A DNA stretch of 64,000 nt, from the NCBI GenBank assembly GCA_045644305.1, contig JAZRGS010000031.1, positions 3,722-67,721 of the forward strand. Reading direction: 5' to 3'. Source of the DNA: Eubacteriales bacterium (lineage in GTDB: Bacteria; Bacillota; Clostridia; Oscillospirales; CAG-382). Each line of letters starts with the position of its first letter. Position 1 is the first letter of the stretch. This document shows, in pieces, positions 8,898 through 27,886 of this stretch. The notes under the pieces are model-generated. The model had not been told where the DNA came from and made no database searches. It worked only from the letters and a program-made list of their open reading frames with translations. The position numbers and the translations under genes were made by a program.

Positions 8898-9247
8898 AAT
8901 TTTGTGCCTCCTAAAATTTATTTTATCCCGAGGCGTCTCCCTTGCCCGACTGATAAGTTTTATATTTCGTTTTGAAAATATATCGTTATTTCGCCGTGCG
9001 GAGCTGATTTTTCGGCTTTGCGCGCGTTTCGCTCCGACTGACAAGGCATAGGCATCGGTATTCAAAGTAATTATACATATTTTTTCTTGTCTTGTAAACC
9101 CCCTACATATAAATATATGAAAATTTTTAACAATTATTTCGCGAAAAAAGAGCCTCTTTCGACAAAAGCGGCTTTGCGAGAGTTAAAATCGTTGACTATT
9201 TGCTTTAAAAGGGGTATAATGTAAAAAATATCGTAAAATGGTGAAGT

Positions 9248-10369
9248 ATGATATATTTCGACTCGGCGGCGACGACCGCTCCGTTTCAAACCGCGATCGA
9301 CGCGGCAAATAACGCCTTTTCCTGCTTCGGCAACCCATCCTCGCTTCATTCGGCGGGCATAAACGCGAAGAAAATGCTCGATCTTGCACGCAAAACCATC
9401 GCGAATTCGCTTTATTGCAAGCCCGACGAGGTTATTTTCACAAGCGGCGGAAGCGAAAGCAACAATCAGGCGATATTCGGACTTGCGAATCTTCGAATCC
9501 GCCGTTCAAAGCGCATCATCACGACCGACAGCGAGCACCCGTCGGTTTTGAATCCGCTTGCGCGACTTGAAGCCGAGGGCTTCGAAATTGTAAAAATACC
9601 GACCGTAAGCGGCAAGCTCGATATAGAATACCTCGAAAACGCGCTTAAGGACGGCGCGGCGTTCGTCACGGTGATGCTCGCGAATAACGAAACCGGCGCG
9701 AAATATGACCTTGCCGCGGTCAGACGCGCTATCGACCGAAGCGGATGCGGCGCGTTGCTCCATTGTGACGCGGTTCAGGGCTTTTTGAAGCTCAAAAATC
9801 CGCGTGAAATTTCGAAATATTGCGATCTTGCAAGCGTTTCGGCGCACAAGATCGGCGGATTAAAGGGTGTCGGCGCGCTTTATTGCAAGTCGGGCATCAA
9901 AATCCAGCCCTTTATCCACGGCGGCGGACAGGAAAAAAATCTGCGCTCGGGCACCGAAAACGTCGCGGGTATCTCGGCATTTGCCGCCGCCTGCGAGGAG
10001 TTCCCGAAGCATATTTCGCACATCTCGGCTTTGTACGACCGCGCGGTCGCGCTTTTGTCACAGCATCCCGAAATAATCAAGCTTAACCTACCCGAAAGCC
10101 ACATCGACAGCATCCTTTCCATCTCTGTCAAGGGCGTTCGCAGCGAGGTTTTGCTCAACGCGCTCGACCTTAAAGGGGTGTGCATCTCGGCAGGCAGTGC
10201 CTGCTCGGCAAGAAAGGGACCCAGCGGTGCGCTGACCGCTTTCGGGCTTTCCAAGGAGGAAATCGACGGCACCGTCCGCATCAGCTTCGGCGCATTCAAT
10301 ACGCAAGAAGAGGTCGACTCGCTCGTCGAAAGTATTCTCGACACGATAAACGCGCTATCGAGAAAATAA
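9248..10369 (+). CDS. Cysteine desulfurase (class V aminotransferase, NifS/IscS-like)
   Basis: PLP-lysine context SVSAHKIGG and catalytic Cys loop SAGSACS. It lies upstream of thiI. Confidence 0.85.
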   Translation: MIYFDSAATTAPFQTAIDAANNAFSCFGNPSSLHSAGINAKKMLDLARKTIANSLYCKPDEVIFTSGGSESNNQAIFGLANLRIRRSKRIITTDSEHPSVLNPLARLEAEGFEIVKIPTVSGKLDIEYLENALKDGAAFVTVMLANNETGAKYDLAAVRRAIDRSGCGALLHCDAVQGFLKLKNPREISKYCDLASVSAHKIGGLKGVGALYCKSGIKIQPFIHGGGQEKNLRSGTENVAGISAFAAACEEFPKHISHISALYDRAVALLSQHPEIIKLNLPESHIDSILSISVKGVRSEVLLNALDLKGVCISAGSACSARKGPSGALTAFGLSKEEIDGTVRISFGAFNTQEEVDSLVESILDTINALSRK

Positions 10370-10466
10370 TCTCGGGCAGATTTTGCAGGAAAATAATCAA
10401 ATCGATAAATTTAAAAAGTTTTGAAGGGCAGGGGAAACCCATAAAGCGGTTTCCGAAAACAAAAAC

Positions 10467-11633
10467 ATGGAAGTATTGCTTTTAAAATACGGTGAAATAG
10501 TTTTGAAGGGGCTCAATCGCGGCTACTTCAATACCATGCTCGAAAGCAGGGTAAAGCGCGCTTTGAAGAGCGTGCAGGGCGAATTTTATTACGATTACGC
10601 GCAATCGACGCTTTGCGTCTGGGGCTCGGACGACGCCGATATGGACACCGCCTACGAAAAGGTCAAAAAGGTGTTCGGTATCGCAACCGTCTGCCGCGGC
10701 ATAGCCTGCGAAAAGGACATGGACGAGATCAAGCAAAAGCTTGCGGAAAATATCGACGACCTGCTCGGAAACGCACGCACCTTTAAGTGCGACGCGAAGC
10801 GAAGCGATAAGAAATTTGCGTTGAAATCTCCCGAAATCTGCGCAATTTGCGGCGGAACCGTGCTTGAATCGCGCCCCGACATGAAGGTCGACGTCATAAA
10901 TCCCGATCAGGTCATCACTATCGAGATTCGCGACAGAAAGGCGTTCATCCACGGCAGAGGCGAAAAGGGCGCGGGCGGTGTTCCCGTTGGCTCGGGCGGC
11001 AGAGCGATGCTTATGCTTTCGGGCGGTATCGACAGCCCCGTTGCAGGCCACATGATCGCGCGCAGAGGTGCGGCGATCGACGCGGTTTACTTTGAAACTC
11101 CGCCTTACACGGGCGAAGCGGCGGCGATGAAGGTCCGCACGCTTGCCGAAAAATTAACCGAATATTGCGGCGAAATATATCTTCATTCGGTGTCCTTGAC
11201 CGAGGTTCAGGAAACCCTCGTTGCCAACTGCAAGGAAAAGCTTTTCACGCTTCTTTTGAGAAGATTTATGGTGCGCTGTGCCTGCAGAATTGCCGAAAAA
11301 TACGGCGCGGGCTGCCTTGTCACGGGCGAAAGCCTTAGTCAGGTTGCGAGCCAGACGATGCTGTCGCTCGGCGTGACCGACGCGGTCGCAACTCTTCCGA
11401 TTTTGCGTCCCTGCATCGGGCTTGATAAGGAGGAAATCGTTGTCCGCGCAAGGGAAATCGACACCTTCGAGACATCTATTCTTCCTTATGAGGACTGCTG
11501 TACCGTATTCACACCGAAGCACCCCGACACCCGCCCCGACATCGCCGAAATCTTGGAGGAAGAGGCGAAAATCGACGTCGAGGGACTTGTCGAGCGCGCT
11601 CTCGCAACCGACCATTTTGTAAGATTGGGGTAA
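10467..11633 (+). CDS. thiI: tRNA 4-thiouridine synthase ThiI
   Basis: THUMP-like N-terminus and PP-loop motif LSGGIDSPVA. Confidence 0.85.
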   Translation: MEVLLLKYGEIVLKGLNRGYFNTMLESRVKRALKSVQGEFYYDYAQSTLCVWGSDDADMDTAYEKVKKVFGIATVCRGIACEKDMDEIKQKLAENIDDLLGNARTFKCDAKRSDKKFALKSPEICAICGGTVLESRPDMKVDVINPDQVITIEIRDRKAFIHGRGEKGAGGVPVGSGGRAMLMLSGGIDSPVAGHMIARRGAAIDAVYFETPPYTGEAAAMKVRTLAEKLTEYCGEIYLHSVSLTEVQETLVANCKEKLFTLLLRRFMVRCACRIAEKYGAGCLVTGESLSQVASQTMLSLGVTDAVATLPILRPCIGLDKEEIVVRAREIDTFETSILPYEDCCTVFTPKHPDTRPDIAEILEEEAKIDVEGLVERALATDHFVRLG

Positions 11634-11637
11634 ACCG

Positions 11638-12141
11638 ATGAAGGCTTTGATAAACCGCCTTAAAAGGCAGGGAAAACAGATATCCTGCGCCGAGTCCTGT
11701 ACGGGTGGGCTCGTCGCGAAGATGATAACCGACGTTTCGGGCGCGAGCAGCGTTTTTCAGTGCGGAATCGTCACCTATTCGAACGAAATGAAGCAAAATC
11801 TGCTCGGCGTTTCGGAAAAAACCTTGTGCGAATTCGGCGCCGTTTCCGAGGAGATCGCGCGTGAAATGGCTTTGGGCGTTTTGGAAAAGTCGGGCTCGGA
11901 TATCGCGGTTTCGGTAACCGGACTTGCAGGCCCCGAGGGCGACGGCTCCGGCAAGCCTGTCGGCACGGTTTGCATCGGCATAGCGACGGCGGAAAAATGC
12001 TATGCGACCACCTTTGTTTTCGCAGGTAAGCGCAACGAAATAAGACGCCGCGCCGCAAAAATGGCGCTCAATATGGCATACGATGAGCTGGCTTTGCAAA
12101 AATCCGAAAAGCCGAAAAGAAAACGCAAAATCAAGGAATAA
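11638..12141 (+). CDS. CinA-family protein (PncC-like nicotinamide-nucleotide amidohydrolase domain)
   Basis: Contains SCAESCTGGLVA...IVTYSNE.K...LGV, the CinA C-terminal domain signature. Confidence 0.8.
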   Translation: MKALINRLKRQGKQISCAESCTGGLVAKMITDVSGASSVFQCGIVTYSNEMKQNLLGVSEKTLCEFGAVSEEIAREMALGVLEKSGSDIAVSVTGLAGPEGDGSGKPVGTVCIGIATAEKCYATTFVFAGKRNEIRRRAAKMALNMAYDELALQKSEKPKRKRKIKE

Positions 12142-12144
12142 TAT

Positions 12145-12175
12145 AAAAAAAGAGGGTAACCCCTCTTTTTGTTTT
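12145..12175. terminator. Bidirectional terminator
   Basis: Hairpin agaggg-taac-ccctct, flanked by A-runs and T-runs between convergent genes. Confidence 0.75.
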
Positions 12176-12187
12176 GCGCGAAAGACT

Positions 12188-12358
12188 TCAGTCGCGTTCA
12201 AGCCTATTTAAAATCTCTTGCCGTTTTGCCTTTAAAATCTCGTCGTCGATATCGACGTAAATACAGTTTTCGCAGCAACCGCATACATCGAGCGAAATTT
12301 CGTCAAGCTTGCAAATGCTTTTATCCCAATAAATGCAAAAAATGTTGTCGCAACGCAT
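12188..12358 (-). CDS. Small Cys-rich protein (56 aa), below the ORF-track length cut-off
   Basis: GGAGGGA lies 4 nt upstream of the ATG. Translation: MRCDNIFCIYWDKSICKLDEISLDVCGCCENCIYVDIDDEILKAKRQEILNRLERD (7 Cys). Divergent from an XRE gene. Confidence 0.5.
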   Translation of the reverse strand: MRCDNIFCIYWDKSICKLDEISLDVCGCCENCIYVDIDDEILKAKRQEILNRLERD

Positions 12359-12400
12359 ACGTCCCTCCCGTTTTTGTAATTATATCAAAAAATAGGGATA

Positions 12401-12466
12401 ATATCAAGTACTCGAAGTATAAAAACTTGTCGGCAACCTATACTGATATCAAGTAACCGAAGTATA
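12401..12466. promoter_or_regulatory. Pair of 21-bp direct repeats (candidate XRE operator)
   Basis: atatcaagtactcgaagtata (12401-12421) and atatcaagtaaccgaagtata (12446-12466) match at 19 of 21 positions. They lie in the divergent promoter region. Confidence 0.45.
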
Positions 12467-12476
12467 GGAGATTGCG

Positions 12477-12716
12477 ATGAAGTTAAATGAAGCGATTGCC
12501 GCGAGAATCCGCGAGCTGTGCAACGAAAAGGGGCTTTCACAGTACGGACTGTCGATGAAAAGCGGAGTTCCTCAGTCGACGCTCAGCACCATAACGAACT
12601 GTACCTTTCAAAGCATGAAGGTTCGCATTATATACGAAATCTGCGAAGGGCTCGAAATGAGCATCGCCGACTTTTTCGATTCGCCGCTTTTCGATAGAGA
12701 AAAAATTATCGATTAA
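12477..12716 (+). CDS. XRE-family helix-turn-helix regulator
   Basis: 79 aa with ...KGLSQYGLSMKSGVPQSTLSTI..., an HTH_3-like motif. Confidence 0.75.
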   Translation: MKLNEAIAARIRELCNEKGLSQYGLSMKSGVPQSTLSTITNCTFQSMKVRIIYEICEGLEMSIADFFDSPLFDREKIID

Positions 12717-12798
12717 AATTAAAAAGAAAAACAGACAGGTTAATCCTGTCTGTTCTGTTTTTTGTATAAAGGCTACGAAAAAGATTTTTTTGCGTCAA

Positions 12799-13587
12799 TT
12801 AATAAGGTTTCGAACTCAAACGGTTTTTATTAATTTTTCGTACTCCCATAATAACGATATGTACTATAATTTCTACCGCAAAAAAGATAATAATATTTAA
12901 AAACGGCATTACAAATGGTGCTATCAACTCAGGAATTGCGTAAAATGGATCTCGTACGACAAAAAACCAATTAAAAAAGTGAGAATATCCATCAGAAGTG
13001 CCGTTGTAGGCATAATTTCCGATCAATGCCCATATGGTCATAAATACGATTGCGCCTAAATCACGATAACACTTTTTGATATTATATTTATCGTATTCAA
13101 AGATCAATGTCAATAATCCGTAAACTGTCATTATGCTATGAAAAATGAGCGTTTGTATCACACGATAAGAAATCGGGTGCACCGCATGCCACATAACGCC
13201 TGCGGGATAAATGAGATAGACAAGATTGGAAATAAAGCCAAGCAATACAAATGAAAGCCTATACTTTTCAAGAAACCGATTATGATAGCTTAAAAAGCAC
13301 AACACACACATGGCGGTACAGACATGGAACGGTAATTTTTCAATGTCAATCTCACCGTATGCCAAAGGCATCAAAAAGAAATCCAATATGTATAAACCAA
13401 ATGCGATGTCAATAAAGATTTGAGCTGTTCTTTTTTTAAAATCATTGCCTTTGTTTTTGAGCAAAAGCAAAATAACGACTACTGCAACAATCGTCAGCAC
13501 GATGTAGAAAAAATGCCATACTCCAAATAGGGTGAAAATCTCGCCGCCTTTTTTATCAGACAAAAGGTTATTAAAAAAACGATACAT
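12799..13587 (-). CDS. Integral membrane protein (YwaF/TIGR02206-like)
   Basis: 262 aa with about 7 TM segments and an LPFHVC motif. The gene is visibly AT-rich compared with its flanks. Confidence 0.45.
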   Translation of the reverse strand: MYRFFNNLLSDKKGGEIFTLFGVWHFFYIVLTIVAVVVILLLLKNKGNDFKKRTAQIFIDIAFGLYILDFFLMPLAYGEIDIEKLPFHVCTAMCVLCFLSYHNRFLEKYRLSFVLLGFISNLVYLIYPAGVMWHAVHPISYRVIQTLIFHSIMTVYGLLTLIFEYDKYNIKKCYRDLGAIVFMTIWALIGNYAYNGTSDGYSHFFNWFFVVRDPFYAIPELIAPFVMPFLNIIIFFAVEIIVHIVIMGVRKINKNRLSSKPY

Positions 13588-13650
13588 GCCATCACCGCCT
13601 TTCTGGGATTATAGCATATTTTACAAAGCAATTCAAGAACTTTTCGCATT

Positions 13651-13846
13651 CTCACATCTCAATCACGCCGAAGGCGTGTATATCATCCGCAACTTGTTGC
13701 GGTATATCATCAACACGGAGTGTTGTATATCATCAAGCCGCTGGGAAATGCACGCTAAAGCGTGATGAGATACAAGGGCGGCAAGCCGCCCATGATGATA
13801 TACACCGCACGTTGTGCGGCGATGAGATGCCAAGCCTGCGGCTTGG
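13651..13846. repeat. Array of 7 short hairpins joined by a conserved 9-nt linker (three forward, three inverted)
   Basis: Hairpins lie at 13664-78, 13687-702, 13711-25, 13751-64, 13776-91, 13805-19 and 13830-46. The linker is TATATCATC x3, then its complement GATGAKATR x3. Confidence 0.85.
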
Positions 13847-13891
13847 ATAAAAAAAGAAGCAACTTTTGGTAGACAAAAGTTACTTCTTTTT

Positions 13892-13911
13892 TGGCAGCGG
13901 AATAGGGATTC
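13892..13911 (-). repeat. Duplicated 3' end of tRNA-Gln (att-like scar)
   Basis: tggcagcggaatagggattc is identical to 14080-14099 (24 nt identical if the preceding tttt is included). Confidence 0.85.
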
Positions 13912-14079
13912 TCCGCAGACTTCACGCCTACATACGGCGCTCCGCGCCTCTTTCGCCGCGCGTCTGCTCCCCTGTGGCACTGCAAACGTGTCCCCGACAC
14001 GTTTGCTCGGCTTCGCCGCCGTGCCCTTCGAATCCCTTCAGAACAAAACAAAAAACCACCGTGTGGTGGTTTTTTGTTT

Positions 14080-14154
14080 TGGCAGCGGAATAGGGATTCG
14101 AACCCCAACAAACAGAGTCAGAGTCTGTCGTGCTAACCGTTACACAATTCCGCT
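14080..14154 (-). tRNA. tRNA-Gln (CTG)
   Basis: Hand-folded cloverleaf: acceptor AGCGGAA/TTCCGCT, anticodon loop CTCTGAC, T-loop TTCGAAT, encoded CCA. A terminator hairpin lies at 14055-14075. Confidence 0.85.
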
Positions 14155-14301
14155 ATATTGGTTCTGCGCTCTTGCGCGTTGACTATTCTATCACTGTTTT
14201 TGACGATTGTCAAGTCTTTTTTGTTTTTTTTGAAATTTTAAGGAGCGAAAACCGCTGTCACTTCAAAGAAAGTGCGAATATACTGTCGAGGGTGATGAAT
14301 T

Positions 14302-17052: not shown

Positions 17053-18039
17053 TTATTTGTTCTTTTTGAAAATTTCCTTGTAGTCAGCAGCCGCGAAGAT
17101 ACTGCAAACGAGTACGATCAAGGCGTAAAGCACCGACATACCGGTAGGAAGCGTTTCCTTGAAGCTGAGCTCGAAAAGCCACATATAAACGGGAATATTG
17201 AAAACCAATGCCCATGCAGCGTAGGTTACGTTCAAAGCCATAGCCTTTGCCGCACCGATTTCGTTAATTGCCTTGTAATAGAAGAGGTAGGAAATAGTAG
17301 CAAACAAGCCTGCGATAACGATAACGGGAATAATCAAGCCGCTTACGCTGAAGTTGAAGAGCTCAGCGGTAATCTTCCAGCCCTCTACCAAGCTGTGGTT
17401 GCCGACACAAAGGCTTACAACGGGGATAAGTATAATGCCGTTAAATAATGCAGAGGTGGTCTGACGAATCTGCAACGCCTGCTCGTCGGTGACCTCGCCG
17501 TCCTTCATGCTCTTTGCAAGGATAACAGCCTCAATGCCCCAACCGAATGCGCAAAGCAACGCGCCGATAAAGCCAAGGAGGAAGTTTTCGGTTGCCATAC
17601 CGTCGGTAATACCGAGCGCGAATACGCCGCAGAGGGTGATTACCAAGAAGATCCACTGATACCACTTCATTCTTTCCTTCAAGAAGAAGTATGCGAGAAC
17701 CGTACCGATTGCAGGGAATATCGCGCTTGCAACAGCGCCCATAATACCCATGTAGTTAAGGCACATAACGTAGCCTGTCATACCGATAGGTCCGCCGATA
17801 ATTGCCGCAATTGCAACCCATTTGCCGCTCTTGGTCTTGAATGCATTCCAAACGTTCTTTATATTTCCGCGAACGCCGTTATAGGCAGTTGCGAAGATAG
17901 CCGAACAAAGGTCGTGAAGAAAGGTTGCAACCAACGGTGCGAGAAATGCGAAATCCGCCAACGGAGAAAGCGAAAGCGCGCCCCATAAGAGTGCGGTTTC
18001 TACTGCCCAGGTAATACCTGCGATAATGCCGGGAAACAT
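17053..18039 (-). CDS. DMT-superfamily permease, LicB-like putative choline transporter
   Basis: About 10 TM segments in 328 aa. It lies immediately downstream of the licA/licC-like genes. The substrate is inferred from context only. Confidence 0.5.
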   Translation of the reverse strand: MFPGIIAGITWAVETALLWGALSLSPLADFAFLAPLVATFLHDLCSAIFATAYNGVRGNIKNVWNAFKTKSGKWVAIAAIIGGPIGMTGYVMCLNYMGIMGAVASAIFPAIGTVLAYFFLKERMKWYQWIFLVITLCGVFALGITDGMATENFLLGFIGALLCAFGWGIEAVILAKSMKDGEVTDEQALQIRQTTSALFNGIILIPVVSLCVGNHSLVEGWKITAELFNFSVSGLIIPVIVIAGLFATISYLFYYKAINEIGAAKAMALNVTYAAWALVFNIPVYMWLFELSFKETLPTGMSVLYALIVLVCSIFAAADYKEIFKKNK

Positions 18040-18074: not shown

Positions 18075-18971
18075 TTAAAGTGTGTTAAACGCCGCCAAAT
18101 TGTCCTTAAGTCTTGCATAACGCTCGACCGCCCAATCCTCCATAGGCTGTCCGTCGTAAGGCACGCGCGCCTTCGCCCAAAGAGTCCAGAGATAGTCGAC
18201 GTAGATCTTGTTCGCGAGGAAATGCTTCATATCGGTCAACGTGGGGGTTCTGCCGAGGTATTCGGTAAGCAAGAGCTTGTCCTGCTCATCACCGAAGCCT
18301 GCTTCGATCGAAACGTCTGCAACGTCCCACATACCGTCGTTCATGCCCGCATATTCCCAGTCGATAAGGTACATTTTGCCGTTACCCTCAACCCAGTTTT
18401 CACAAAGCGGGTCGTTGTGACAGGGCACGCTTTTGGGGTTAACGAGTGTGTCGATTTCCTTCTTGATCTCCATAACCCTTGCCTTGCTTTCGGCATAGTC
18501 GTCGAACATCGGAACATTCATGTCGCTAATGATCTTTTCATAGCCCGCCGCCATATCGAACACCTCGAAGGGTACGCCGGTATCGACGCCGCAGCTGTGA
18601 ATCACCTTGTAAACCTCAGCAACCTGCTTGATATGCTCGGGCTGATGAAGCAGCTCGGAATTCATCGTAATCGCGTTGGGGATGTATTCGGTCACCTTCG
18701 AGCCATCGTCGCCGAAGTAAAGCATCTTCGCATCGATTCCGAGGTCGCAGGCAAGAGCCGTGCTCACCTTTTCATCGCTTCTGACGATAAGCTCCTCGGT
18801 GCCTTCGCCGGGGATTCTTACGACGTATTCCCTGCCGTCTTCAAGGGTTACGTGATAGGTATGGTTGGTCAAGCCGCCCATTCTTTCGACGTTTTTGTAG
18901 CAGTCAACGCCCAAAACGTCATTTAGGAGTCGTTTGATTTCGGATAAATCTTTTTCGATGATTTCTCTCAT
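18075..18971 (-). CDS. Choline/ethanolamine kinase-like phosphotransferase (LicA-like)
   Basis: Brenner/APH motif HNDPLCENW and LIDWEYAGMND. Confidence 0.7.
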   Translation of the reverse strand: MREIIEKDLSEIKRLLNDVLGVDCYKNVERMGGLTNHTYHVTLEDGREYVVRIPGEGTEELIVRSDEKVSTALACDLGIDAKMLYFGDDGSKVTEYIPNAITMNSELLHQPEHIKQVAEVYKVIHSCGVDTGVPFEVFDMAAGYEKIISDMNVPMFDDYAESKARVMEIKKEIDTLVNPKSVPCHNDPLCENWVEGNGKMYLIDWEYAGMNDGMWDVADVSIEAGFGDEQDKLLLTEYLGRTPTLTDMKHFLANKIYVDYLWTLWAKARVPYDGQPMEDWAVERYARLKDNLAAFNTL

Positions 18972-19843
18972 GCATAAACCTCCTTTAATTCTTTACTGTT
19001 GTAATTGTATTCGTAATTTTTGTCTTTTACGGTAAATCTGACGCCCGCCGCGGCGTTGTCCTTGTCCTTGTAAGCCGTAACGTTTACGATTTCGGATTCA
19101 AGGCAGGAAAGCCTTGAGGCTGCGCCTTTAAGAATTTCCGAACGGGTATTTGAAATATAGCTTTCGTCGAAAAGCCTTAATTCGTCAAGCGTGTCGAATT
19201 CGAAAATCACGTCGCTTGCGTACTTGCGGATTCTCATCTTGAGCTCGTCGAGATGCTCCATATAAATCGATTCCCACAAAAGGTTCGCCGTTTCGGGCAA
19301 ATCGTAAATCTCGTCGAGAATCTTCAAAAAGCCCTTCGAAAATTCCTCATCCCAGAAGGTGTGTCCGAGCATAAACCAAGCATCTCTGCCGCCAACGGTC
19401 ACGTTGTTGATAAAGCCGTCCTCTGATTCGGTCATGCACCATTCCTTGGTTTCGCCGTCGGCATAAATCGCGGCGTAATAAGCCGAATCCACCTCGGATT
19501 CAAAGGGATTTTGCGAAAAATAGTTGTCCGACGAGCAAATATAGCTGTTTTTGAGGTATTCCCTCGCGACGTAAATGCTCGCGTTGTTGTTACGCGTGAG
19601 GTAATCGTCGTTGACGACAATCTTTACGCCGAATTTTTCCTCGAGATACATAAAGCATTCCTTCATGTATCCGACGACAACGATGATTTCGTCGATGCCC
19701 GCCTCGCGCAGCTGACGTATTTGTCGCTCGATAAGCACCTCGCCCTTGACCTCGATAAGCGCCTTGGGGCGCTCGAAGGAAAGCGGTGCAAATCGGCTCG
19801 CGGTGCCTGCCGCCATAATAATGGCGTTATCTACTTTAAACAT
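18968..19843 (-). CDS. Nucleotidyltransferase (LicC-like CTP:phosphocholine cytidylyltransferase) with extra C-terminal domain
   Basis: The N-terminus AIIMAAGTASRF...PKALIEV is an NTP-transferase signature. A 4-nt overlap with the kinase gene suggests coupling. Confidence 0.65.
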   Translation of the reverse strand: MFKVDNAIIMAAGTASRFAPLSFERPKALIEVKGEVLIERQIRQLREAGIDEIIVVVGYMKECFMYLEEKFGVKIVVNDDYLTRNNNASIYVAREYLKNSYICSSDNYFSQNPFESEVDSAYYAAIYADGETKEWCMTESEDGFINNVTVGGRDAWFMLGHTFWDEEFSKGFLKILDEIYDLPETANLLWESIYMEHLDELKMRIRKYASDVIFEFDTLDELRLFDESYISNTRSEILKGAASRLSCLESEIVNVTAYKDKDNAAAGVRFTVKDKNYEYNYNSKELKEVYA

Positions 19844-19876
19844 AAAATTTTCTACCTTTTAAGCGATTTTGCCAAA

Positions 19877-22630
19877 TCAAGGCAATTCATGCTCCTTGAG
19901 CACGATCGAAGAACCGTAAATTTCCCAGTCGTTTCTGTCCCAAATGTCGTTGGTGATTGCCGCCCAACGTCCCGCCTTAAAGGTGTTTCCGTTATTCTTT
20001 GCGGGGTTCCATTCGTGCGAAAGCATGATCATCTGGTCGTGAGCATACTTTTCGTCGCTCGTGATAAGCTTACCGGTGAAGGGATTTACGGGGTTTGCAA
20101 TCGTGCCGTCAGTCGCGATGGTCGGAACGTCGGCGTTCGTCATAAACTCGTTAGAGGTGGTAAATGCACCGTTCGAGTTGAAATCCTTAACCATAAACAA
20201 CGGGAAGAAGTTAGACATATCGTCGCTTCCGTGAATAAGCTCTTTTGTCTGATTGAGATAATAGCCGTGGTCGGAAACGATTATGATCTTGGTGTTGTCG
20301 TAAACGCCCTCCTCGCGGAGCCAATCGAACCAATTGCCGAGCTCAACCAAGCTCGCGGCGTTGGACTGATAATGTGTAAGCTGTTCCTCATTCTTAATGT
20401 TGATCTTCTTACCGTTTAAGGTAAATCTGTCGGGATTCGACTTTTCGTATTCGGTATTATCGACATTACCCGAGGGAACAAACTGAGGCTCCTGCATCAT
20501 CATAGGCTCGTGCGGAGCATCGTTGTAAAGGAAGAAGAAATTCTTGGAATCGTCCTTCTTTATCTGAGCGATGTTATCCAGGTTACGAAGCACCTCAAAA
20601 GGCTCCATAAAGTTCTGCTTATAGCCCTGCGAGGTAGTCATACTCGTGACAACGTAGCTTGTGTATTCGCTGACGGTTGTTTCGTGGTAGCCGCCGCCGC
20701 CGTAAACCGCCTGCTGCATGAACAGCGGAAGCGTTTTCATATAAGCAAATGCAAACATATTGCGGTTATTACTGGTGATATAAGCTTCCTTCATATCGGA
20801 ATTACCGTAAGCACCCTCTGTCAAATAGGTCGAAATGCCTTCATAATCATCGTAAATCGACATATCGGGGATGTTCTGATAATTCGCATAGGGCGCGTCG
20901 CAAACGGTTACGTCAAAGCCGTTTTGCGAGAAAAGAACCGGCATAACAAGAAGCGATTCGTTATGCTTCTTCACAAGCTCCTCTGCATCGCGCTTGTTCA
21001 ATTCAACGGGGGTGTATTCATAACCGCCCATAAGTGCGGGCACCGCCATATTCGTATGGCCGCCGAAGGAAATAGTGTTGTTATAGAAGGTAAAGCCTTG
21101 ATATTTTTTATCAAGTCCCTCAACCTCGTTAAATATGTAGGGGACGTATTCCGCCATACCGCGGTCGAGCATAATTACGACGACGTTCTGACCGTTTTTG
21201 CTGAGATTGAACTTAGCAGCCGCGTCATCGATTTGACCGACCTTGACCGCCTTTACGGTTCTTCCGATAGCGATGCCGTTGATGCTCGCCATTACGAACA
21301 CCGCAAGCACGCCGGTAATAAGCACGGTTTTAACCTGCTTCGTCCATTTTGTGACGATAAAGAAAAGCAGGTAGGAAAGCGCAAGGATGACGATAAAGTT
21401 AATCGTTTGCTGCTTCATCGTGAAGTTAAAGCCGCTTAAATACTGAAGCTTGTTTGTAAGCATACCGAGCTTCGTGCCAAAGAACATATAGTTCACTACC
21501 GCACAGATGCTCATTATGAAGAGGGTACGCTCGAAAACAACCTTACCGTTGTCGCTCGCGAGCCAATAAAAGACGTTGAACCAAATAAGGAAGGTGCCTG
21601 CCGCAAAGGCAAACGCCGAAATCATAAACCAAAGCGGATGATAGAAATAGGTAATGTCGATATAATCGGTCGGAGACGCGTTGATAACGTTCGAAGGTAT
21701 CAGCAAGCCGATAACAACGGTCAGCAAGAGCGCCGAAAGAATAAACAGCTTCTTATCGGGCTTTGCGGTCGTAGGCTTGAATTCAAGCTTTAAGGTCTTG
21801 ACCAACAGCTTCCAAATCCAAGGGAGCTGAAGCGCAAATCCTATGATCCAAAGCGCCGATTTCGCCATCTCGTAGGCTTCGTTTTCGATAAGCAGGCTGC
21901 CCAAGATCGCACAGACACCCAAAGCCGCAACGAGCACAAGAATAACCTTTTTCGGGTTCTTAAGCTTGTAAAATACGTTCTTAATAAGCGAGAAAACGTT
22001 GTTAAGAGTCCAATAAAATACCAAGCCCGCGGGGGAATTATAAAGGAAAACGAGGAAGAAGATTGCAATGCCGTAAAGCTGAATCTTCGTCTTCAAGGGG
22101 AATCCCTTAAGATAAATAGCGCTCGAAATGACGTTGATAAGCGTCATAAGTATCGGCAAAAGGTTAAGAGCGATTCCGCCGATAAACAAAAGTCCGTCGG
22201 GGTCACCCAAATCGGCAATAGGGCCTAATTTCGCACCCTTCAACGCGGGAAGAGTCGATAAGAACTGATAAGCCGCCATAAAGAAGGGGATTTCAAGAAG
22301 AAGCGAAACCGAGCCCTTGAGCACGTCGGTCGGCTTATAGTTGTTTTGGCGATAATAGGTCTGAAGCATCATCATGCGTTCATCGCCCGAAAAGGTCTTC
22401 TTTATGTGGTCGACGCCGTCGCGAAGCTTTTCCTCGACGTCGCGCGCCTGCTCCTGCATCGCGTCAGCGCGGCGGTAAAGCGGAAGAACCAAAAGGTTCA
22501 TCGCGAGGGACAGCATTATAATCGCAATCGCAGGGTTGCCGGTGATATAATGCGCAAAGGTGAAAATATATTCAAAAACAAGCTTTAACGGACCGATAAG
22601 CAAGGTTTCGAGAATCTTAAAAAACGGCAT
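19877..22630 (-). CDS. Fusion protein: YidC/Oxa1-like insertase domain, polytopic segment and extracytoplasmic sulfatase/LtaS-like domain
   Basis: Residues 1-225 align by eye with SpoIIIJ/YidC (GNPAIAII...LPL..., SPAGLVFYWTLNNVFSLIKN). Residues ~490-917 resemble the alkaline-phosphatase superfamily (VVVIMLDRG, GGHTN, IIVSDHG). Confidence 0.6.
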   Translation of the reverse strand: MPFFKILETLLIGPLKLVFEYIFTFAHYITGNPAIAIIMLSLAMNLLVLPLYRRADAMQEQARDVEEKLRDGVDHIKKTFSGDERMMMLQTYYRQNNYKPTDVLKGSVSLLLEIPFFMAAYQFLSTLPALKGAKLGPIADLGDPDGLLFIGGIALNLLPILMTLINVISSAIYLKGFPLKTKIQLYGIAIFFLVFLYNSPAGLVFYWTLNNVFSLIKNVFYKLKNPKKVILVLVAALGVCAILGSLLIENEAYEMAKSALWIIGFALQLPWIWKLLVKTLKLEFKPTTAKPDKKLFILSALLLTVVIGLLIPSNVINASPTDYIDITYFYHPLWFMISAFAFAAGTFLIWFNVFYWLASDNGKVVFERTLFIMSICAVVNYMFFGTKLGMLTNKLQYLSGFNFTMKQQTINFIVILALSYLLFFIVTKWTKQVKTVLITGVLAVFVMASINGIAIGRTVKAVKVGQIDDAAAKFNLSKNGQNVVVIMLDRGMAEYVPYIFNEVEGLDKKYQGFTFYNNTISFGGHTNMAVPALMGGYEYTPVELNKRDAEELVKKHNESLLVMPVLFSQNGFDVTVCDAPYANYQNIPDMSIYDDYEGISTYLTEGAYGNSDMKEAYITSNNRNMFAFAYMKTLPLFMQQAVYGGGGYHETTVSEYTSYVVTSMTTSQGYKQNFMEPFEVLRNLDNIAQIKKDDSKNFFFLYNDAPHEPMMMQEPQFVPSGNVDNTEYEKSNPDRFTLNGKKINIKNEEQLTHYQSNAASLVELGNWFDWLREEGVYDNTKIIIVSDHGYYLNQTKELIHGSDDMSNFFPLFMVKDFNSNGAFTTSNEFMTNADVPTIATDGTIANPVNPFTGKLITSDEKYAHDQMIMLSHEWNPAKNNGNTFKAGRWAAITNDIWDRNDWEIYGSSIVLKEHELP

Positions 22631-23862
22631 TATTTCTTTTCTCCCTTCTTGCGAATCTGTTCGTATTTTTTAACCAAATAATCAACGCATCTTTCGGCAC
22701 CGTTCGAGAAATGCTCCCAGGTTTCTGCCTTCGCCTGCGCTCTGCCTGCGGCATACTTGGGGTCCTCAAGACATTCGTCGATAAGCTGCTTTATGTTGCC
22801 CATGCTTTCGTCTGTAAGCTTGCAGCCGATTTTGGGCAGGGTTTCGGTCGTCCAAAGCGGCTTGTTAAGCCACCAAGCGTCATAGGGGCTCAAATCAAAG
22901 TTCGGGTCGGTGTAAATAACAGGCTTGTCGTAAACAAGCGTAAAGTCGAAAATAACACCCGAAAAGTCGGAAATAAGAATATCCGAGCGATTAAGGACGT
23001 CGAAATTATCGGTATCGCGGTTCCATTCGAGATTTTCGGAATCGGGATACTGCTTCATGATCTTTTCGATCATATCCTTTTCGGAAATAAAGGTTTGCGG
23101 GTGGGGACGGACGATAATGTGGTATCCTGTCTTTAAAAGCTCGTCAAGAATCTTGGTTCCGTAGGTGTTGAAAATCGCACTCGGACCCCACGAGGGAGCG
23201 AGCAATACCGTGCGGGGATGCGGTGACGCCTTGCCTTCCCTTTCAAGCCTTTTCGCCATTACGTCCATATAGGGAATGCCGATTTTGTAAAGCTCCTTTT
23301 CGGGAAGATTGCGCATTTCCTCCATCAAGCGGATGTCCTGCGCCTGATATTCGCCCGAAAGAAGAACCGCGTCGTAATAGTCGATACCGAACATACGGTA
23401 AAGGCAAATATCGCTTGCCGCGTGCGGAATATGCACGTAATAATCGACCTGCTTCGAGCGCTTCCACTGATAAACCTCAAGACCGGGGGTGGTGGAAAGC
23501 AAAACCGACGCGTTAAGGAAATTAAGACGGGTATACATCTTATTTCCCTCGCCGATAAATTCCGCTTTTACATGCTTCAAGCCGCAATCCAACGCCTTAT
23601 CGTCGGGCGACGCGGTGAGATAAAGCACGTCGATTCCCCTTTTGTCGAATTCGCGACAGATAGGCTCAAAAATCGACCAATAGCGCTTATTATCCGAAAA
23701 AATCGCGAACGGCACCTTTTTATCGTCGATCTGCACCTTGCCGCCGCTGATTTTCTGCTTCAGCTTCATAAAAAAGGTTCTTGCGGAATACACACCGGCA
23801 CCCAAAACGCCCACCAAAACGGTGAAAAGCATACTGCCTGTGCCGGGATCTATATACATCAT
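22630..23862 (-). CDS. CDP-glycerol glycerophosphotransferase (TagB/TagF family)
   Basis: LLAPSWG...IIVRPHPQ...SDFSGVIFDF. Start moved to the ATG at 23862, preceded by AAGGAG. Confidence 0.75.
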   Translation of the reverse strand: MMYIDPGTGSMLFTVLVGVLGAGVYSARTFFMKLKQKISGGKVQIDDKKVPFAIFSDNKRYWSIFEPICREFDKRGIDVLYLTASPDDKALDCGLKHVKAEFIGEGNKMYTRLNFLNASVLLSTTPGLEVYQWKRSKQVDYYVHIPHAASDICLYRMFGIDYYDAVLLSGEYQAQDIRLMEEMRNLPEKELYKIGIPYMDVMAKRLEREGKASPHPRTVLLAPSWGPSAIFNTYGTKILDELLKTGYHIIVRPHPQTFISEKDMIEKIMKQYPDSENLEWNRDTDNFDVLNRSDILISDFSGVIFDFTLVYDKPVIYTDPNFDLSPYDAWWLNKPLWTTETLPKIGCKLTDESMGNIKQLIDECLEDPKYAAGRAQAKAETWEHFSNGAERCVDYLVKKYEQIRKKGEKK

Positions 23863-24026
23863 AATTTTCTCCTTAACAAAGAGGTTTCGAATCGGCATAC
23901 CTGCCCTAATTTTAACTTATATTATATCACGAATTTTACTTAAAATCAATAGCAATTTAGTTGGTTATATTATTAATATGTAAACAAATATAAAAGGACG
24001 GCTTCCCGTCCTTTCGTTTGTTGTTA

Positions 24027-24734
24027 TTAATATCCGGTAACGAGTATAGCCGCAATAGCATCGACCCCGTGCACGCCCTTTGAAAGCGTTGTAAACGCGG
24101 TGGCATCCTTATCGACAAGCTCTGTGGCAGTCTCGATAAGCTCGTAAGCGTTATCGCTGTATTTATCCCAATCGATTATCGCCGAGCAAATAATGCATTT
24201 AGCGCCATTGATTGCGGTAAACGCCTCCATTTCTGCCTTCACCGAAGCCATATCGCCCTCAAAGCGTTTGAAATTCGCCTTGCCGCAATTGCTCAAAAGT
24301 CCGCTTATATCCTCCATATCCGCACCGATGAGTGATTCGGTGTACATCGGCTGCATAATACATTCCGCGACGCTTTTTGCCTCGCACTCGCTTTCTGTAT
24401 TAACCACACAATCGCAAGCAGACGTTATCTTGTCAACGCTGCCCTTGACCAAGGCAACCGTCGTTTTCTTTTCCTTTTTCGCAACAGAAGCGATCGAATT
24501 GACGGCGTCCAAGCCCTCCTCGGAATCGGCAACGACGATGATAAGCTGAGTATTGTTAAGCAGCGCCTTCGTCACAAAATCCGAAACCTTAACGTCGGAC
24601 ATAACGAATTTCAATCGATCCTCGCCCGAAAATCCATCGATTTCGGAATATAGATTCGCGGAGATGTATTTAACCGCCTGCGCGCCGTAATTGCCGACGC
24701 CGATAATTTTTGTGTTTTGAGAAATCTGTTCCAT
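24027..24734 (-). CDS. Hypothetical protein with a degenerate FtsZ/tubulin-like (Rossmann-type) N-terminus
   Basis: KIIGVGNYGAQAVKYI resembles FtsZ IGVGGGGxNAV. Downstream blocks are collinear with FtsZ, but the GGGTGTG (T4) signature is absent (ADSEEGLDA instead). Confidence 0.35.
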   Translation of the reverse strand: MEQISQNTKIIGVGNYGAQAVKYISANLYSEIDGFSGEDRLKFVMSDVKVSDFVTKALLNNTQLIIVVADSEEGLDAVNSIASVAKKEKKTTVALVKGSVDKITSACDCVVNTESECEAKSVAECIMQPMYTESLIGADMEDISGLLSNCGKANFKRFEGDMASVKAEMEAFTAINGAKCIICSAIIDWDKYSDNAYELIETATELVDKDATAFTTLSKGVHGVDAIAAILVTGY

Positions 24735-25946: not shown

Positions 25947-27599
25947 TCAGTCGTCGACCTTTTCACCGATTCTCGCTTCCTTGATGCCGTTGCGGCGGCA
26001 GTATTCCTGAGCAAGAGAGCCTTCGTTACAGTAAACCACGACCTTGTCCTCGCATCCGTCGAACATACCCCAGCCCATGTCCTTGACCGAGTCGGGAATG
26101 ATAACGGTGTCAAGGCTGGTACAGCCTCTGAACGCGCAGTCGTCGATCTTGGTTACGCTATCGGGAATTTCGATTTCGTCGAGAAGCGTACAGTTGCAGA
26201 ACGCACCTTCACCGATTTCGTTAACGCTGTCGGGCATGGTGATTCTGTTAAGCTTCTTACTGTCGCAGAATGCCCAGTCGCTGATAACGGTTACGCTGTC
26301 GGGAATGTCATACTGAACCTCACGGCTGTTCGCGGGGTATGCAATAAGCGTCGATTTGTTCTTGTTGAAAAGAACGTAGTCGTTACCGTCGCGCTTGTTG
26401 GGTTCGGACTTGTAGTGCATATTCTTGGGCTCAACACGAATCGACTTCATGTTTTCACAGCCTCTGAAGGGAGCGTCGGAGATAGAGATAACCGATGCGG
26501 GAATGGTTACGTTGGTAAGCGATTTGCAGTTCTTGAACGCGCTCTTACCGATCTTGCGCAAGCCTGCGGGAAGCTCGATGGAAGCAAGGCTGATGCAGCC
26601 GTTGAACACAAGGTCGTCGATCTTGGTTACGTTCGAGGGAATTACAACCTTTTCAAGACCTACACAGTCGGAGAATGCGTTTTCACCGATAATCGTAAGT
26701 CTTTCGGGGAGCTTGATCGATTTCAAGCTCTTACAGGAGTTAAATACACCGCCGTAGAGCTCGGTAAGTCCGTCGGGAAGGGTTACGTCCTCAAGCGTTG
26801 CGCAGTTTTCAAACGCGCGCTCGCCGATCTTGATAAAATCGTTTTCAACAACAAGCTTGGTCATCGCAACACAGTCGCGATATGCGCTTTCGCCGACTCT
26901 GCCGGTCTTTGCGGGGATGCGCATTTCCTTAAGCTTGTTACAGCCTCTGAATGCCTCCTCCTCGATTTCCTCCAAGGATTCGGGAAGAGTGATGTTCTTC
27001 AATTGGGTTCTCGACTTAAATGCACCCGCACAAATTACGCGCACGCCCTCGTCAACGTCGATAGTTTCGCCGTTGTCCTCACACTTTGTAAGTCTGCCCT
27101 CGTCAAGCGTGAGTCTGTCCATCGCTTCGGCAGGAAGATCGCGCACCATCGACTTGATAAGCTTATCCATGTCGTCGGCGTTGCTGTGGTGGGTGTTGTT
27201 AAGGAGAATTTCAAACGCAGGAGGAACAGCGGTTTCGGAATCGAGGAAGATCGGATAAAGACGCTTGCCGTTTTCGCGTGCGCAGATGATTTCCATACCG
27301 CAGAAAGGCGAATTCATCGATGCATCGGATACGAAAAGCACGACAGCCGAGCAGTTTTCGATTCTCTTGCGAAGCTCATCTCTGAAGTCGTTGCCGTTTT
27401 CGCAGGATTCATCATACCAGATGCGGTACTTTCTGTCGTGCAACGCATCAAGAATGGGATAAACCTGCGCTGTATCTCTGTGAGAATAGGAAATAAACAA
27501 ATAGGGTTCGGTGCCGTTGTATGCCTCGAACTTGGTGAATACCAAAGGAAATTCATCATTTACGGTTTTGGTGGTCTTCTTAACGGTTTGATTTGCCAT
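25947..27599 (-). CDS. Cytoplasmic TIR-domain protein fused to about 12 BspA-type leucine-rich repeats
   Basis: AGGAGG lies 8 nt before the ATG at 27599. TIR motifs: YLFISYSHRD...RIWYDE...VVLFVS..S..SPFCGMEI. These are followed by repeated IP.SV..I...AF..C..L units. No signal peptide. Confidence 0.8.
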   Translation of the reverse strand: MANQTVKKTTKTVNDEFPLVFTKFEAYNGTEPYLFISYSHRDTAQVYPILDALHDRKYRIWYDESCENGNDFRDELRKRIENCSAVVLFVSDASMNSPFCGMEIICARENGKRLYPIFLDSETAVPPAFEILLNNTHHSNADDMDKLIKSMVRDLPAEAMDRLTLDEGRLTKCEDNGETIDVDEGVRVICAGAFKSRTQLKNITLPESLEEIEEEAFRGCNKLKEMRIPAKTGRVGESAYRDCVAMTKLVVENDFIKIGERAFENCATLEDVTLPDGLTELYGGVFNSCKSLKSIKLPERLTIIGENAFSDCVGLEKVVIPSNVTKIDDLVFNGCISLASIELPAGLRKIGKSAFKNCKSLTNVTIPASVISISDAPFRGCENMKSIRVEPKNMHYKSEPNKRDGNDYVLFNKNKSTLIAYPANSREVQYDIPDSVTVISDWAFCDSKKLNRITMPDSVNEIGEGAFCNCTLLDEIEIPDSVTKIDDCAFRGCTSLDTVIIPDSVKDMGWGMFDGCEDKVVVYCNEGSLAQEYCRRNGIKEARIGEKVDD

Positions 27600-27886
27600 T
27601 GCGGTAACCTCCTGAAAATTTATAAGAATGCGCCTTACGCCTTTTATTAATGATACATTATAACACTTTGCCCCTCGGTTGTCAATCAATTATAACCCTT
27701 TTTTGTCATTTTTTGTACATATTAAATACAATTCCCACGCCTTTTGCACCCTTTGTACCCCTTTAACCGCGACACAACCAACGGTAGAGCGTTTTTGCTT
27801 GACTTCAGCCGTCCCAAGTGATAAAATAAAAACAACGAACGACTGCAGGCGTTTGTTGTAAATCAATACGAAAGGAGGGGCAGTAT

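Follow-up and report, generated by a model that had tools for sequence, protein, structure and literature searches.

What might a bacterium do with a protein in which the fold of the YidC membrane insertase is joined to an outer domain resembling those of LtaS and the phosphoethanolamine transferases? The question is posed by a gene on the minus strand (19877..22630) of a 64,000-nucleotide stretch of contig JAZRGS010000031.1 from an Eubacteriales bacterium (the whole stretch is referred to here as the window), which encodes a protein of 917 amino acids (aa). A sequence-only reading of the window, which gave no strand for the gene, had described the product as a YidC-like core followed by a polytopic segment and an alkaline phosphatase (AP) superfamily ectodomain. 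We find that a YidC-like module, seven further transmembrane (TM) helices and an extracytoplasmic AP-superfamily domain do reside in one protein, and that the conserved genetic unit is this fusion together with the gene for a TagF-like enzyme immediately upstream, the lic genes beside them being one of several interchangeable head-group modules. We would place at roughly one in two the chance that the fusion constitutes the membrane and outer half of a machinery of two proteins which, by means of a relay, attaches a small phosphate-linked amine head group, in this organism phosphocholine, to the cell envelope.

Architecture of the fusion protein

The open reading frame (ORF) is described by two Pfam families and a predicted structure. 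The 60KD_IMP family (PF02096) matches residues 35-221 (E 5.9e-22; 78.8 bits against a cut-off of 35) over profile positions 3-161 of 163, and the Sulfatase family (PF00884) matches residues 481-801 (E 2.2e-9; 37.5 bits, cut-off 25). The AlphaFold2 model of the full-length protein has a mean predicted local distance difference test score (pLDDT) of 94.8 and a predicted template modelling score (pTM) of 0.90. Hydropathy, the positive-inside pattern and the helices of this model agree in predicting 12 TM helices, with the N-terminus outside and residues 456-917 outside as well. The chain is thus laid out as an amphipathic N-out start, the five YidC helices with their C1 hairpin, seven TM helices (approximately residues 226-461; the earlier count had been about eight) and an outer domain of 460 residues. 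The strings ITGNPAIAIIMLSLAMNLLVLPL, KPTDVLKGSVSLLLEIPFFMAAYQFL and SPAGLVFYWTLNNVFSLIKN, as well as VVVIMLDRG, SFGGHTN and IIVSDHG, are all present in the protein. Across the family, the mean frequency of the most common residue is 0.65 in the YidC-like module, 0.51 in the AP domain and 0.38 in the middle TM helices.

A protein of this composition invites the suspicion that two genes have been joined in error, and the sequence-only reading had singled out 21.9-22.0 kb as the place to look. This junction between the YidC part and the TM helices is covered gap-free by contigs of three independent metagenome studies, the longest of them extending over 21226-22552. Altogether, contigs from four independent animal-gut metagenome studies (strains approximately 90-99% identical, none spanning the whole stretch) were placed on the gene, and the only indels listed in them fall at 19865-19873, in intergenic sequence. 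All sequencing matches listed for the stretch are DNA contigs of related strains, none being of RNA origin. A word-index search gave 3793 homologues among the 8000 candidates scored, and the best 120 close homologues are all of 916-944 aa, all carry PF02096 and for the most part carry PF00884. An exhaustive search of representatives clustered at 50% identity returned 6752 matches at E<=1e-3, of which 1419 reached E<=1e-30. Nearly all of the best 150 representatives are fusions of 820-1006 aa, with a single exception of 689 aa. Given the full-length homologues, the 1419 representatives, the relatives in at least 597 species genomes and the bridging contigs free of indels, an assembly or frameshift artefact can be considered ruled out, and the fusion is upheld. 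A little over 40 of the 150 representatives form a subfamily of 850-880 aa in which the match to the query is split, one stretch being the YidC part and the other running from residue ~290 onward; roughly 45 residues of the middle TM module, equivalent to some two helices, are missing from its members, two of which also occur in the class-wide genome sample described below.

The YidC-like module (residues 1-225; 21956..22630, minus strand) comprises five TM helices preceded by the amphipathic N-out start, with the C1 hairpin on the cytoplasmic side, and is assigned from the 60KD_IMP match, the alignment to a solved YidC and the conservation of the region. Its identity as a YidC core, which had been proposed by eye, is borne out by an alignment of the N-terminus with Bacillus halodurans YidC2 (3WO7) at E 1.3e-7, which runs over residues 22-230 and takes in all five TM helices; Escherichia coli YidC aligns too. 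The replacement of the groove arginine by asparagine had likewise been read correctly. Asn45 (codon 22496..22498, minus strand) aligns exactly with R72 of B. halodurans YidC2 and R366 of E. coli YidC, and in 151 representatives the position holds Asn in 128, Ser in 14, Gln in 5, Cys in 2, Gly in 1 and a gap in one, with neither Arg nor Lys in any of them. A positive groove residue is, by contrast, described as strictly conserved across all YidC homologues in a Journal of Biological Chemistry paper (PMC8920935). With the NCBIfam YidC domain model TIGR03592 the score is 76.2 bits, short of the required 84.3, and the equivalog models all fall far under their own cut-offs.

Polar residues within the TM helices of the module (S41, N45, N156, T163, N166, Q184, Y206, N210 and S214) are conserved at 88% or more, and those of the groove are identical across loci that differ in their head-group genes, which suggests that the role of the module is a generic one. 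The notion of Asn45 as an adaptation of the groove specific to choline was considered and found to be unsupported, as the residue does not vary with the head-group type. Furthermore, no other region of the protein is conserved as strongly as the module, a fact which, together with its fixed polar TM residues, disfavours the view that it is a decayed membrane anchor. A canonical yidC followed by jag, for which the sequence-only reading had advised a search, is found at another place in the genome, and the module is for this reason better regarded as derived and repurposed than as the insertase of the cell. This housekeeping YidC (432 aa; 1432-2730 of its locus in the same genome, with a jag/R3H gene after it) aligns to R72 of 3WO7 at E 4.5e-22 with Glu at the groove-arginine position; it has an insertion of ~150 aa between TM2 and TM3, and a Lys in its TM4 region might hold the relocated charge. 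Database entries name the relatives of the fusion "YidC/Oxa1 family membrane protein insertase", and this naming probably misleads.

At the other end of the protein, the extracytoplasmic AP-superfamily domain (residues 456-917; 19880..21265, minus strand) is assigned from the Pfam match, its invariant residues and structural comparison. Residues D489, T526, H707 and D787-H788 are invariant or nearly so among 120-151 diverse family members, and D489, D787 and H788, which show no variation in 120 sequences, are located in the model at the ends of strands 482-488 and 780-785. The invariant T526 (codon 21053-21055, minus strand) is the first residue of the helix (526-535) that succeeds strand 513-520, with xxxxPALMGG coming after it; from its position in the fold we take it to be the equivalent of T300 in LtaS and T280 in EptA. 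No Cys/Ser-x-Pro-x-Arg formylglycine motif (CxPxR) occurs at the nucleophile position in the fusion sequence, and the combination reads, on the modelled fold, as the signature of the Thr-nucleophile phosphotransferases (LtaS, EptA) and not of the sulfatases. The top Foldseek matches of the full model are PbgA (1.1e-7), full-length MCR-1 (1.3e-7), EptA (2.4e-7) and LtaP (3.0e-7), in keeping with the earlier description of the ectodomain as similar to LtaS or a phosphoethanolamine transferase. In VIA comparisons, residues 479-917 give Z scores of 18-21 to sulfatases, phosphonate monoester hydrolases, PbgA, LtaP, EptC and LtaS, all essentially tied.

Between these two domains lies the least conserved region of the protein, a middle module of 7 TM helices (residues 226-455; 21266..21955, minus strand) recognized from hydropathy and the positive-inside pattern. 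Folded alone it is modelled at a pLDDT of 92 and has no significant match among solved structures (best Foldseek E 0.71); a VIA-wide comparison gave a best Z of 7.0 on a helical hairpin of 54 residues, from which no fold can be assigned and which gives no sign of a new one. The structural alignment with PbgA does extend over model residues 289-915, but at a root-mean-square deviation of 15 Å.

The TagF-like partner and the head-group genes

The gene upstream of the fusion (22630..23898, minus strand) encodes an enzyme of the cytidine diphosphate (CDP)-alcohol phosphotransferase type with one N-terminal TM helix, and its TAA stop overlaps the ATG of the fusion as TAATG. Pfam PF04464 matches the protein with 49.8 bits (cut-off 22.1), but the match is confined to residues 189-339 and covers profile positions 146-299 of 367; TarL (8VA1, E 0.015) was the sole match when the PDB was searched with a profile, and a scan against NCBIfam returned none. 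By these comparisons the protein, which had earlier been labelled tagF-like, can be placed as a distant branch of the TagF/TarF/TarL family; its true start is probably Met13 (23862). A TagF-like gene is found near the fusion in 74 of 80 related loci, in most of which it ends exactly at the start of the fusion, and its orthologues in these loci are 53-74% identical, compared with 42-66% for the fusion. Its N-terminal motif Y-I-D-P-G-T-G is invariant in 60 orthologues and is followed by the single TM helix and a basic stretch, an arrangement which places the catalytic domain, by prediction, in the cytoplasm. In being short, acidic and N-out, the Y-I-D-P-G-T-G tail is reminiscent of YidC substrates; the complex prediction described below gives it no confident position. 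Upstream of the gene, a terminator-like hairpin (24015-23992) is followed on the minus strand by a promoter-like site (23949-23921); a scan for promoter and terminator consensus sequences found site counts no higher than in shuffles, and an operon boundary at this place is only suggestive.

Prediction of a complex between fusion residues 1-470 and the TagF-like protein gave interface scores (ipSAE) of 0.73, 0.73 and 0.72, as compared with 0.01 for the best control. Among solved complexes 58 of 80 attained this mark, as did 2 of 110 mismatched pairs, a benchmark that applies only roughly since the prediction was made with our own alignments. The runs share at least 75% of their contacts, and the pLDDT of the partner is at least 81. 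The predicted interface lies on the C1 cytoplasmic hairpin (residues 53-100; 22331..22474, minus strand), a region modelled with helices at 33-79, 82-95 and 100-125 and with pLDDT 89-97 over residues 51-100, where fusion residues 75-95 would contact residues 129-132, 157-161, 184-186 and 325-330 of the TagF-like protein. In both proteins the residues of the interface exceed those around them in conservation, at 0.81 versus 0.62 in the rest of C1 of the fusion and 0.85 versus 0.73 in the partner. We know of no solved complex of a YidC with a TagF protein, so that the predicted docking is unlikely to represent recall of a known structure. The sequence-only reading had cast the N-terminus as a YidC-derived membrane scaffold; the derivation from YidC stands, whereas the term scaffold appears to understate a module that is the most conserved part of the protein and that is predicted to dock an enzyme through its hairpin.

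Downstream of the fusion are three genes whose resemblance to licC, licA and licB had been recognized before and is sustained here, their substrate specificities being taken from homology. The nearest (18968..19843, minus strand) encodes a LicC-like CTP:phosphocholine cytidylyltransferase (Pfam NTP_transf_3) whose best PDB match is Streptococcus pneumoniae LicC (1JYK, E 4.7e-45; the next match is at 8e-9). It is followed by a LicA-like choline kinase (18075..18971, minus strand; Pfam Choline_kinase, 76 bits; S. pneumoniae choline kinase 4R77, E 4.8e-42) and by an EamA-family transporter of the LicB type (17053..18039, minus strand; Pfam EamA, 49.2 bits), a putative choline importer with an orthologue in the same cassette at 21 of the 80 loci. 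The cassette of five genes (TagF-like, fusion, licC, licA and EamA) recurs, in different order, in otherwise unrelated neighbourhoods, and strong lic orthologues accompany the TagF-like and fusion pair in approximately one quarter of the 80 loci. Elsewhere the company is different. An Acetatifactor locus has a choline-kinase/nucleotidyltransferase fusion and a BCCT transporter beside the pair, and the [Clostridium] aminophilum locus has the same kinase fusion, with no BCCT gene seen, and two tandem YidC fusions. In strain DSM 10710 of the latter organism these paralogues (8001-10895 of the locus, 964 aa; 11046-14171, 1041 aa) follow one TagF-like gene. The Schwartzia locus encodes a phosphoenolpyruvate mutase, a thiamine pyrophosphate-dependent decarboxylase, a class-V aminotransferase and a nucleotidyltransferase, which together correspond to the route to 2-aminoethylphosphonate, and in a Butyrivibrio locus a nucleotidyltransferase is fused to a domain resembling Ser/Thr-phosphate decarboxylases. 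To judge by their homologies, the theme shared by these neighbours is a cytidylyl-activated small amine phosphate or phosphonate.

LicD (PF04991) gave no match in the source metagenome-assembled genome, which is 70% complete, and of 5 other genomes that carry the cassette, 4 likewise gave none. The locus had been called a lic/tag cell-wall locus, and while the five genes justify the lic and tagF-like part of that name, no wider teichoic-acid locus is found beyond them in the window. Its other genes include a family 2 glycosyltransferase, a TIR-LRR protein, a CitMHS transporter, a DUF2961 protein and metabolic genes. The TIR-LRR protein (25947-27689, minus strand; 580 aa; TIR_2, 68 bits; BspA-type LRR_5, 270 bits) is encoded two genes upstream of the cassette and is possibly of a defence or NADase type. 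An ORF of 235 aa (24027-24734, minus strand) belongs to no Pfam family, and its N-terminus IIGVGNYGAQAV resembles a degenerate glycine-rich motif of the FtsZ/tubulin type; the hairpin at 24015-23992, a strong one, comes after this ORF.

A proposed relay and its rivals

The relay that we propose begins with the three lic-type proteins, for which homology suggests that the EamA transporter would import choline, LicA would phosphorylate it and LicC would convert it to CDP-choline. The TagF-like enzyme, anchored by its TM helix and docked on the C1 hairpin, may then move phosphocholine from CDP-choline onto a membrane lipid, at one of its hydroxyls, where the groove opens. By analogy with lipid scrambling by YidC itself, the YidC-like module, whose groove has lost its arginine and yet is polar, might carry the head group of the loaded lipid across to the outer leaflet; scrambling of glycerophospholipids has been shown in vitro for purified E. 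coli YidC and in simulations for Bacillus subtilis MisCB (PMC11047089). There, as the conserved residues suggest, Thr526 of the outer domain would attack the phosphodiester, with D489, D787 and H788 forming the metal site and H707 contributing, and the AP domain would hand on the head group in the manner of LtaS, GacH and EptA, the recipient being a polymer or glycolipid of the cell surface. The sequence-only reading had left the choice between phosphocholine and glycerol-phosphate open, with teichoic acid as the acceptor. The presence of the lic genes as the head-group module beside the pair favours phosphocholine, and glycerol-phosphate is the less favoured of the two.

Each part of this scheme has a counterpart among known systems. 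EptA, MCR-1, EptC and Neisseria PptA have, like the fusion, a polytopic N-terminal membrane domain followed by an outer AP-superfamily domain, with a Thr nucleophile and a metal site of D/E plus D-H, and the reaction proposed here is theirs as well, namely the transfer of a small phospho head group bearing an amine onto a molecule of the cell surface. Full-length MCR-1 and EptA are among the top three Foldseek matches of the fusion, whereas a significant sequence match to EptA, MCR-1 or EptC is absent. The catalytic domain of the fusion is ~100 aa larger than theirs, its 12 TM helices include the YidC core where they have five, and it is paired with a TagF-like enzyme and CDP-choline genes; the EptA-type enzymes take their head group from an ordinary membrane phospholipid and need no cytoplasmic partner. 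LtaS, LtaP, GacH and SccH similarly combine a membrane anchor with an outer Thr-nucleophile AP domain and move a group from lipid to wall polymer, and LtaP and LtaS are among the structural matches. These enzymes, however, use phosphatidylglycerol and are without a YidC module or TagF-like partner, while the lic genes at the fusion point to phosphocholine. GacH offers a precedent for the late decoration of a wall polysaccharide outside the cell (bioRxiv 10.1101/337519).

With YidC, SpoIIIJ and Oxa1 the fusion shares the five-TM core, the C1 cytoplasmic hairpin, a 60KD_IMP score above the cut-off and an alignment to B. halodurans YidC2 over the whole core. It departs from them in the family-wide Asn in place of the groove Arg, the sub-threshold NCBIfam score, the enzyme to which it is fused and the use of the C1 hairpin, which is predicted to bind the TagF-like enzyme instead of serving insertion. 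The LicD-dependent lic locus of S. pneumoniae and Haemophilus influenzae has homologues of LicA, LicC and the LicB-type transporter in common with the cassette, and CDP-choline is the presumed donor; LicD, on the other hand, was found neither in the cassette nor elsewhere in the 70% of the genome that is assembled, the TagF-like protein and the fusion standing in its place, and the final transfer, which is cytoplasmic with LicD, is predicted here to occur outside the cell. The logic of the proposal, in which a lipid is loaded in the cytoplasm, carried across by a membrane flipper and used by an outer transferase, is that established for GtrB/GtrA/GtrC and CsbB/GtcA/YfhO. Those systems move sugars on undecaprenyl phosphate by means of proteins unrelated to those of the cassette, in which, unlike in them, flipper and outer transferase would be one polypeptide.

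Several considerations weigh against the relay. The fold comparison is unable to separate phosphotransferases from sulfatases and phosphonate monoester hydrolases, and a search of residues 225-917 by sequence against solved structures gave no LtaS or EptA match, only weak sulfatase matches around the DHG motif. The complex of the TagF-like protein with the fusion reflects the confidence of a model and is not a measurement. The substrates on which TagF-family enzymes are known to act are lipid-linked polymers, and the making of simple lipid donors is not among their known activities. In addition, LicD adjoins the fusion in some related loci (Schwartzia, Butyrivibrio), and Hydrogeniiclostridium mannosilyticum carries two LicD genes away from the fusion, so the route is not always free of LicD. 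Finally, what the analysis provides is domain identities, a predicted topology, conservation, gene linkage and a predicted docking, and the lipid intermediate, its flipping, the chemistry of transfer and the acceptor are inferred beyond these.

Of the alternatives, the one that we take most seriously, though we consider it doubtful, divides the work into two separate steps. The TagF-like enzyme would add phosphocholine to a lipid-linked glycopolymer precursor in the cytoplasm, as LicD does; the AP domain would carry out a different outer reaction, for example a ligation or the transfer of glycerol-phosphate or phosphoethanolamine from an ordinary membrane phospholipid; and the YidC-like module would serve only to recruit and position the TagF-like enzyme. 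The established action of TagF-family enzymes, to which the PF04464 match assigns this one, on lipid-linked polymers is in accord with such a division, as are the location of the predicted interface at the cytoplasmic hairpin and not at the groove, the constancy of the groove residues whatever the head-group type, and the need for a replacement in the majority of cassette genomes, in which LicD was not detected. The pair, however, travels with varying head-group genes as a self-contained cassette, which is hard to fit with an AP domain drawing upon an unrelated housekeeping lipid, and a pure docking platform would not need conserved polar residues in its TM helices.

It is less probable again, and in our estimation unlikely, that the module is still an insertase or chaperone, either in cis for the seven TM helices of its own protein or in trans for the N-terminal anchor of the TagF-like enzyme, with the AP domain acting as an ordinary transferase of the LtaS or EptA type. 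E. coli YidC can do without its groove arginine. The five-TM core is complete and above the Pfam cut-off, and the invariant Y-I-D-P-G-T-G of the TagF-like enzyme, followed by its TM helix, would present an acidic N-out tail like that of a classic YidC substrate. Set against this, the confident contacts involve the catalytic domain of the TagF-like protein and not its TM helix, a canonical YidC exists in the genome, the TIGR03592 score of 76.2 misses the cut-off of 84.3, and the positive charge that is strictly conserved in YidC homologues, according to the paper cited above (PMC8920935), is missing in all 151 representatives, 85% of which have Asn. Less probable still is a hydrolytic role for the AP domain, which would trim or remodel surface head groups as a sulfatase, phosphodiesterase or phosphonate monoester hydrolase. 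It is sulfatase-sized at ~440 aa, and its highest VIA Z scores, to phosphonate monoester hydrolases and choline sulfatase (20.4-20.9), slightly exceed those to LtaS and EptC (18.4-19.2), but these differences lie within ~2 units and the scores are mostly tied. The presence of Thr526 at the nucleophile position, as in LtaS and EptA, without a formylglycine motif speaks against hydrolysis, and fusion to a polytopic membrane domain and linkage to genes that activate head groups argue for synthesis and not removal.

Distribution and significance

The earlier suggestion that the same architecture be sought in other Clostridia proved productive. Relatives of the fusion are encoded in at least 597 species-representative genomes, mainly those of gut and rumen Clostridia and also of Negativicutes, and among 300 genomes sampled evenly from the same class, 8, from 4 of 178 genera, contained a full-length copy, and often two. 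Protein-atlas clusters with the fusion architecture are mostly of Bacillota, one being labelled mainly Pseudomonadota, and a weaker match (score 0.89, PF02096 only) is labelled mainly Spirochaetota. The carriers in culture include H. mannosilyticum ASD2818, Acetatifactor aquisgranensis DSM 110981, Schwartzia succinivorans DSM 10502, Butyrivibrio sp. MB2005 and [C.] aminophilum DSM 10710. As the sequence-only reading had supposed, no characterized YidC-sulfatase fusion came to light. Literature searches of incomplete coverage, which linked YidC to sulfatases, LtaS, TagF, phosphocholine and teichoic acid and also took in phosphorylcholine, licA and licD in Clostridia, returned no paper on the fusion. 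For the present, the protein is best filed with the head-group transferases of the LtaS/EptA type, as one that carries a repurposed YidC module.

A broader proposition, which we hold more tentatively than the relay itself, is that the YidC fold has here been repurposed from protein insertion to the movement of a lipid-linked head group, and that the TagF-like enzyme, the groove and the Thr-bearing ectodomain act as one coupled machine which would synthesize, flip and transfer, delivering phosphocholine without LicD and, in other genomes, groups such as aminoethylphosphonate or others resembling phosphoethanolamine. If this is true, it would be the first module of the Oxa1 superfamily dedicated to a role other than insertion, and a new route to phosphocholine-bearing surfaces in bacteria of the gut and rumen. 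Phosphocholine and other zwitterionic head groups at the bacterial surface shape recognition by the host, through C-reactive protein, natural antibodies and antimicrobial peptides, and to our knowledge the sole well-studied route by which bacteria acquire a phosphocholine decoration is that of LicD. The fusion family points to a route other than LicD and to a new use of the YidC fold, one that would tie in with the recent finding that insertases scramble lipids.

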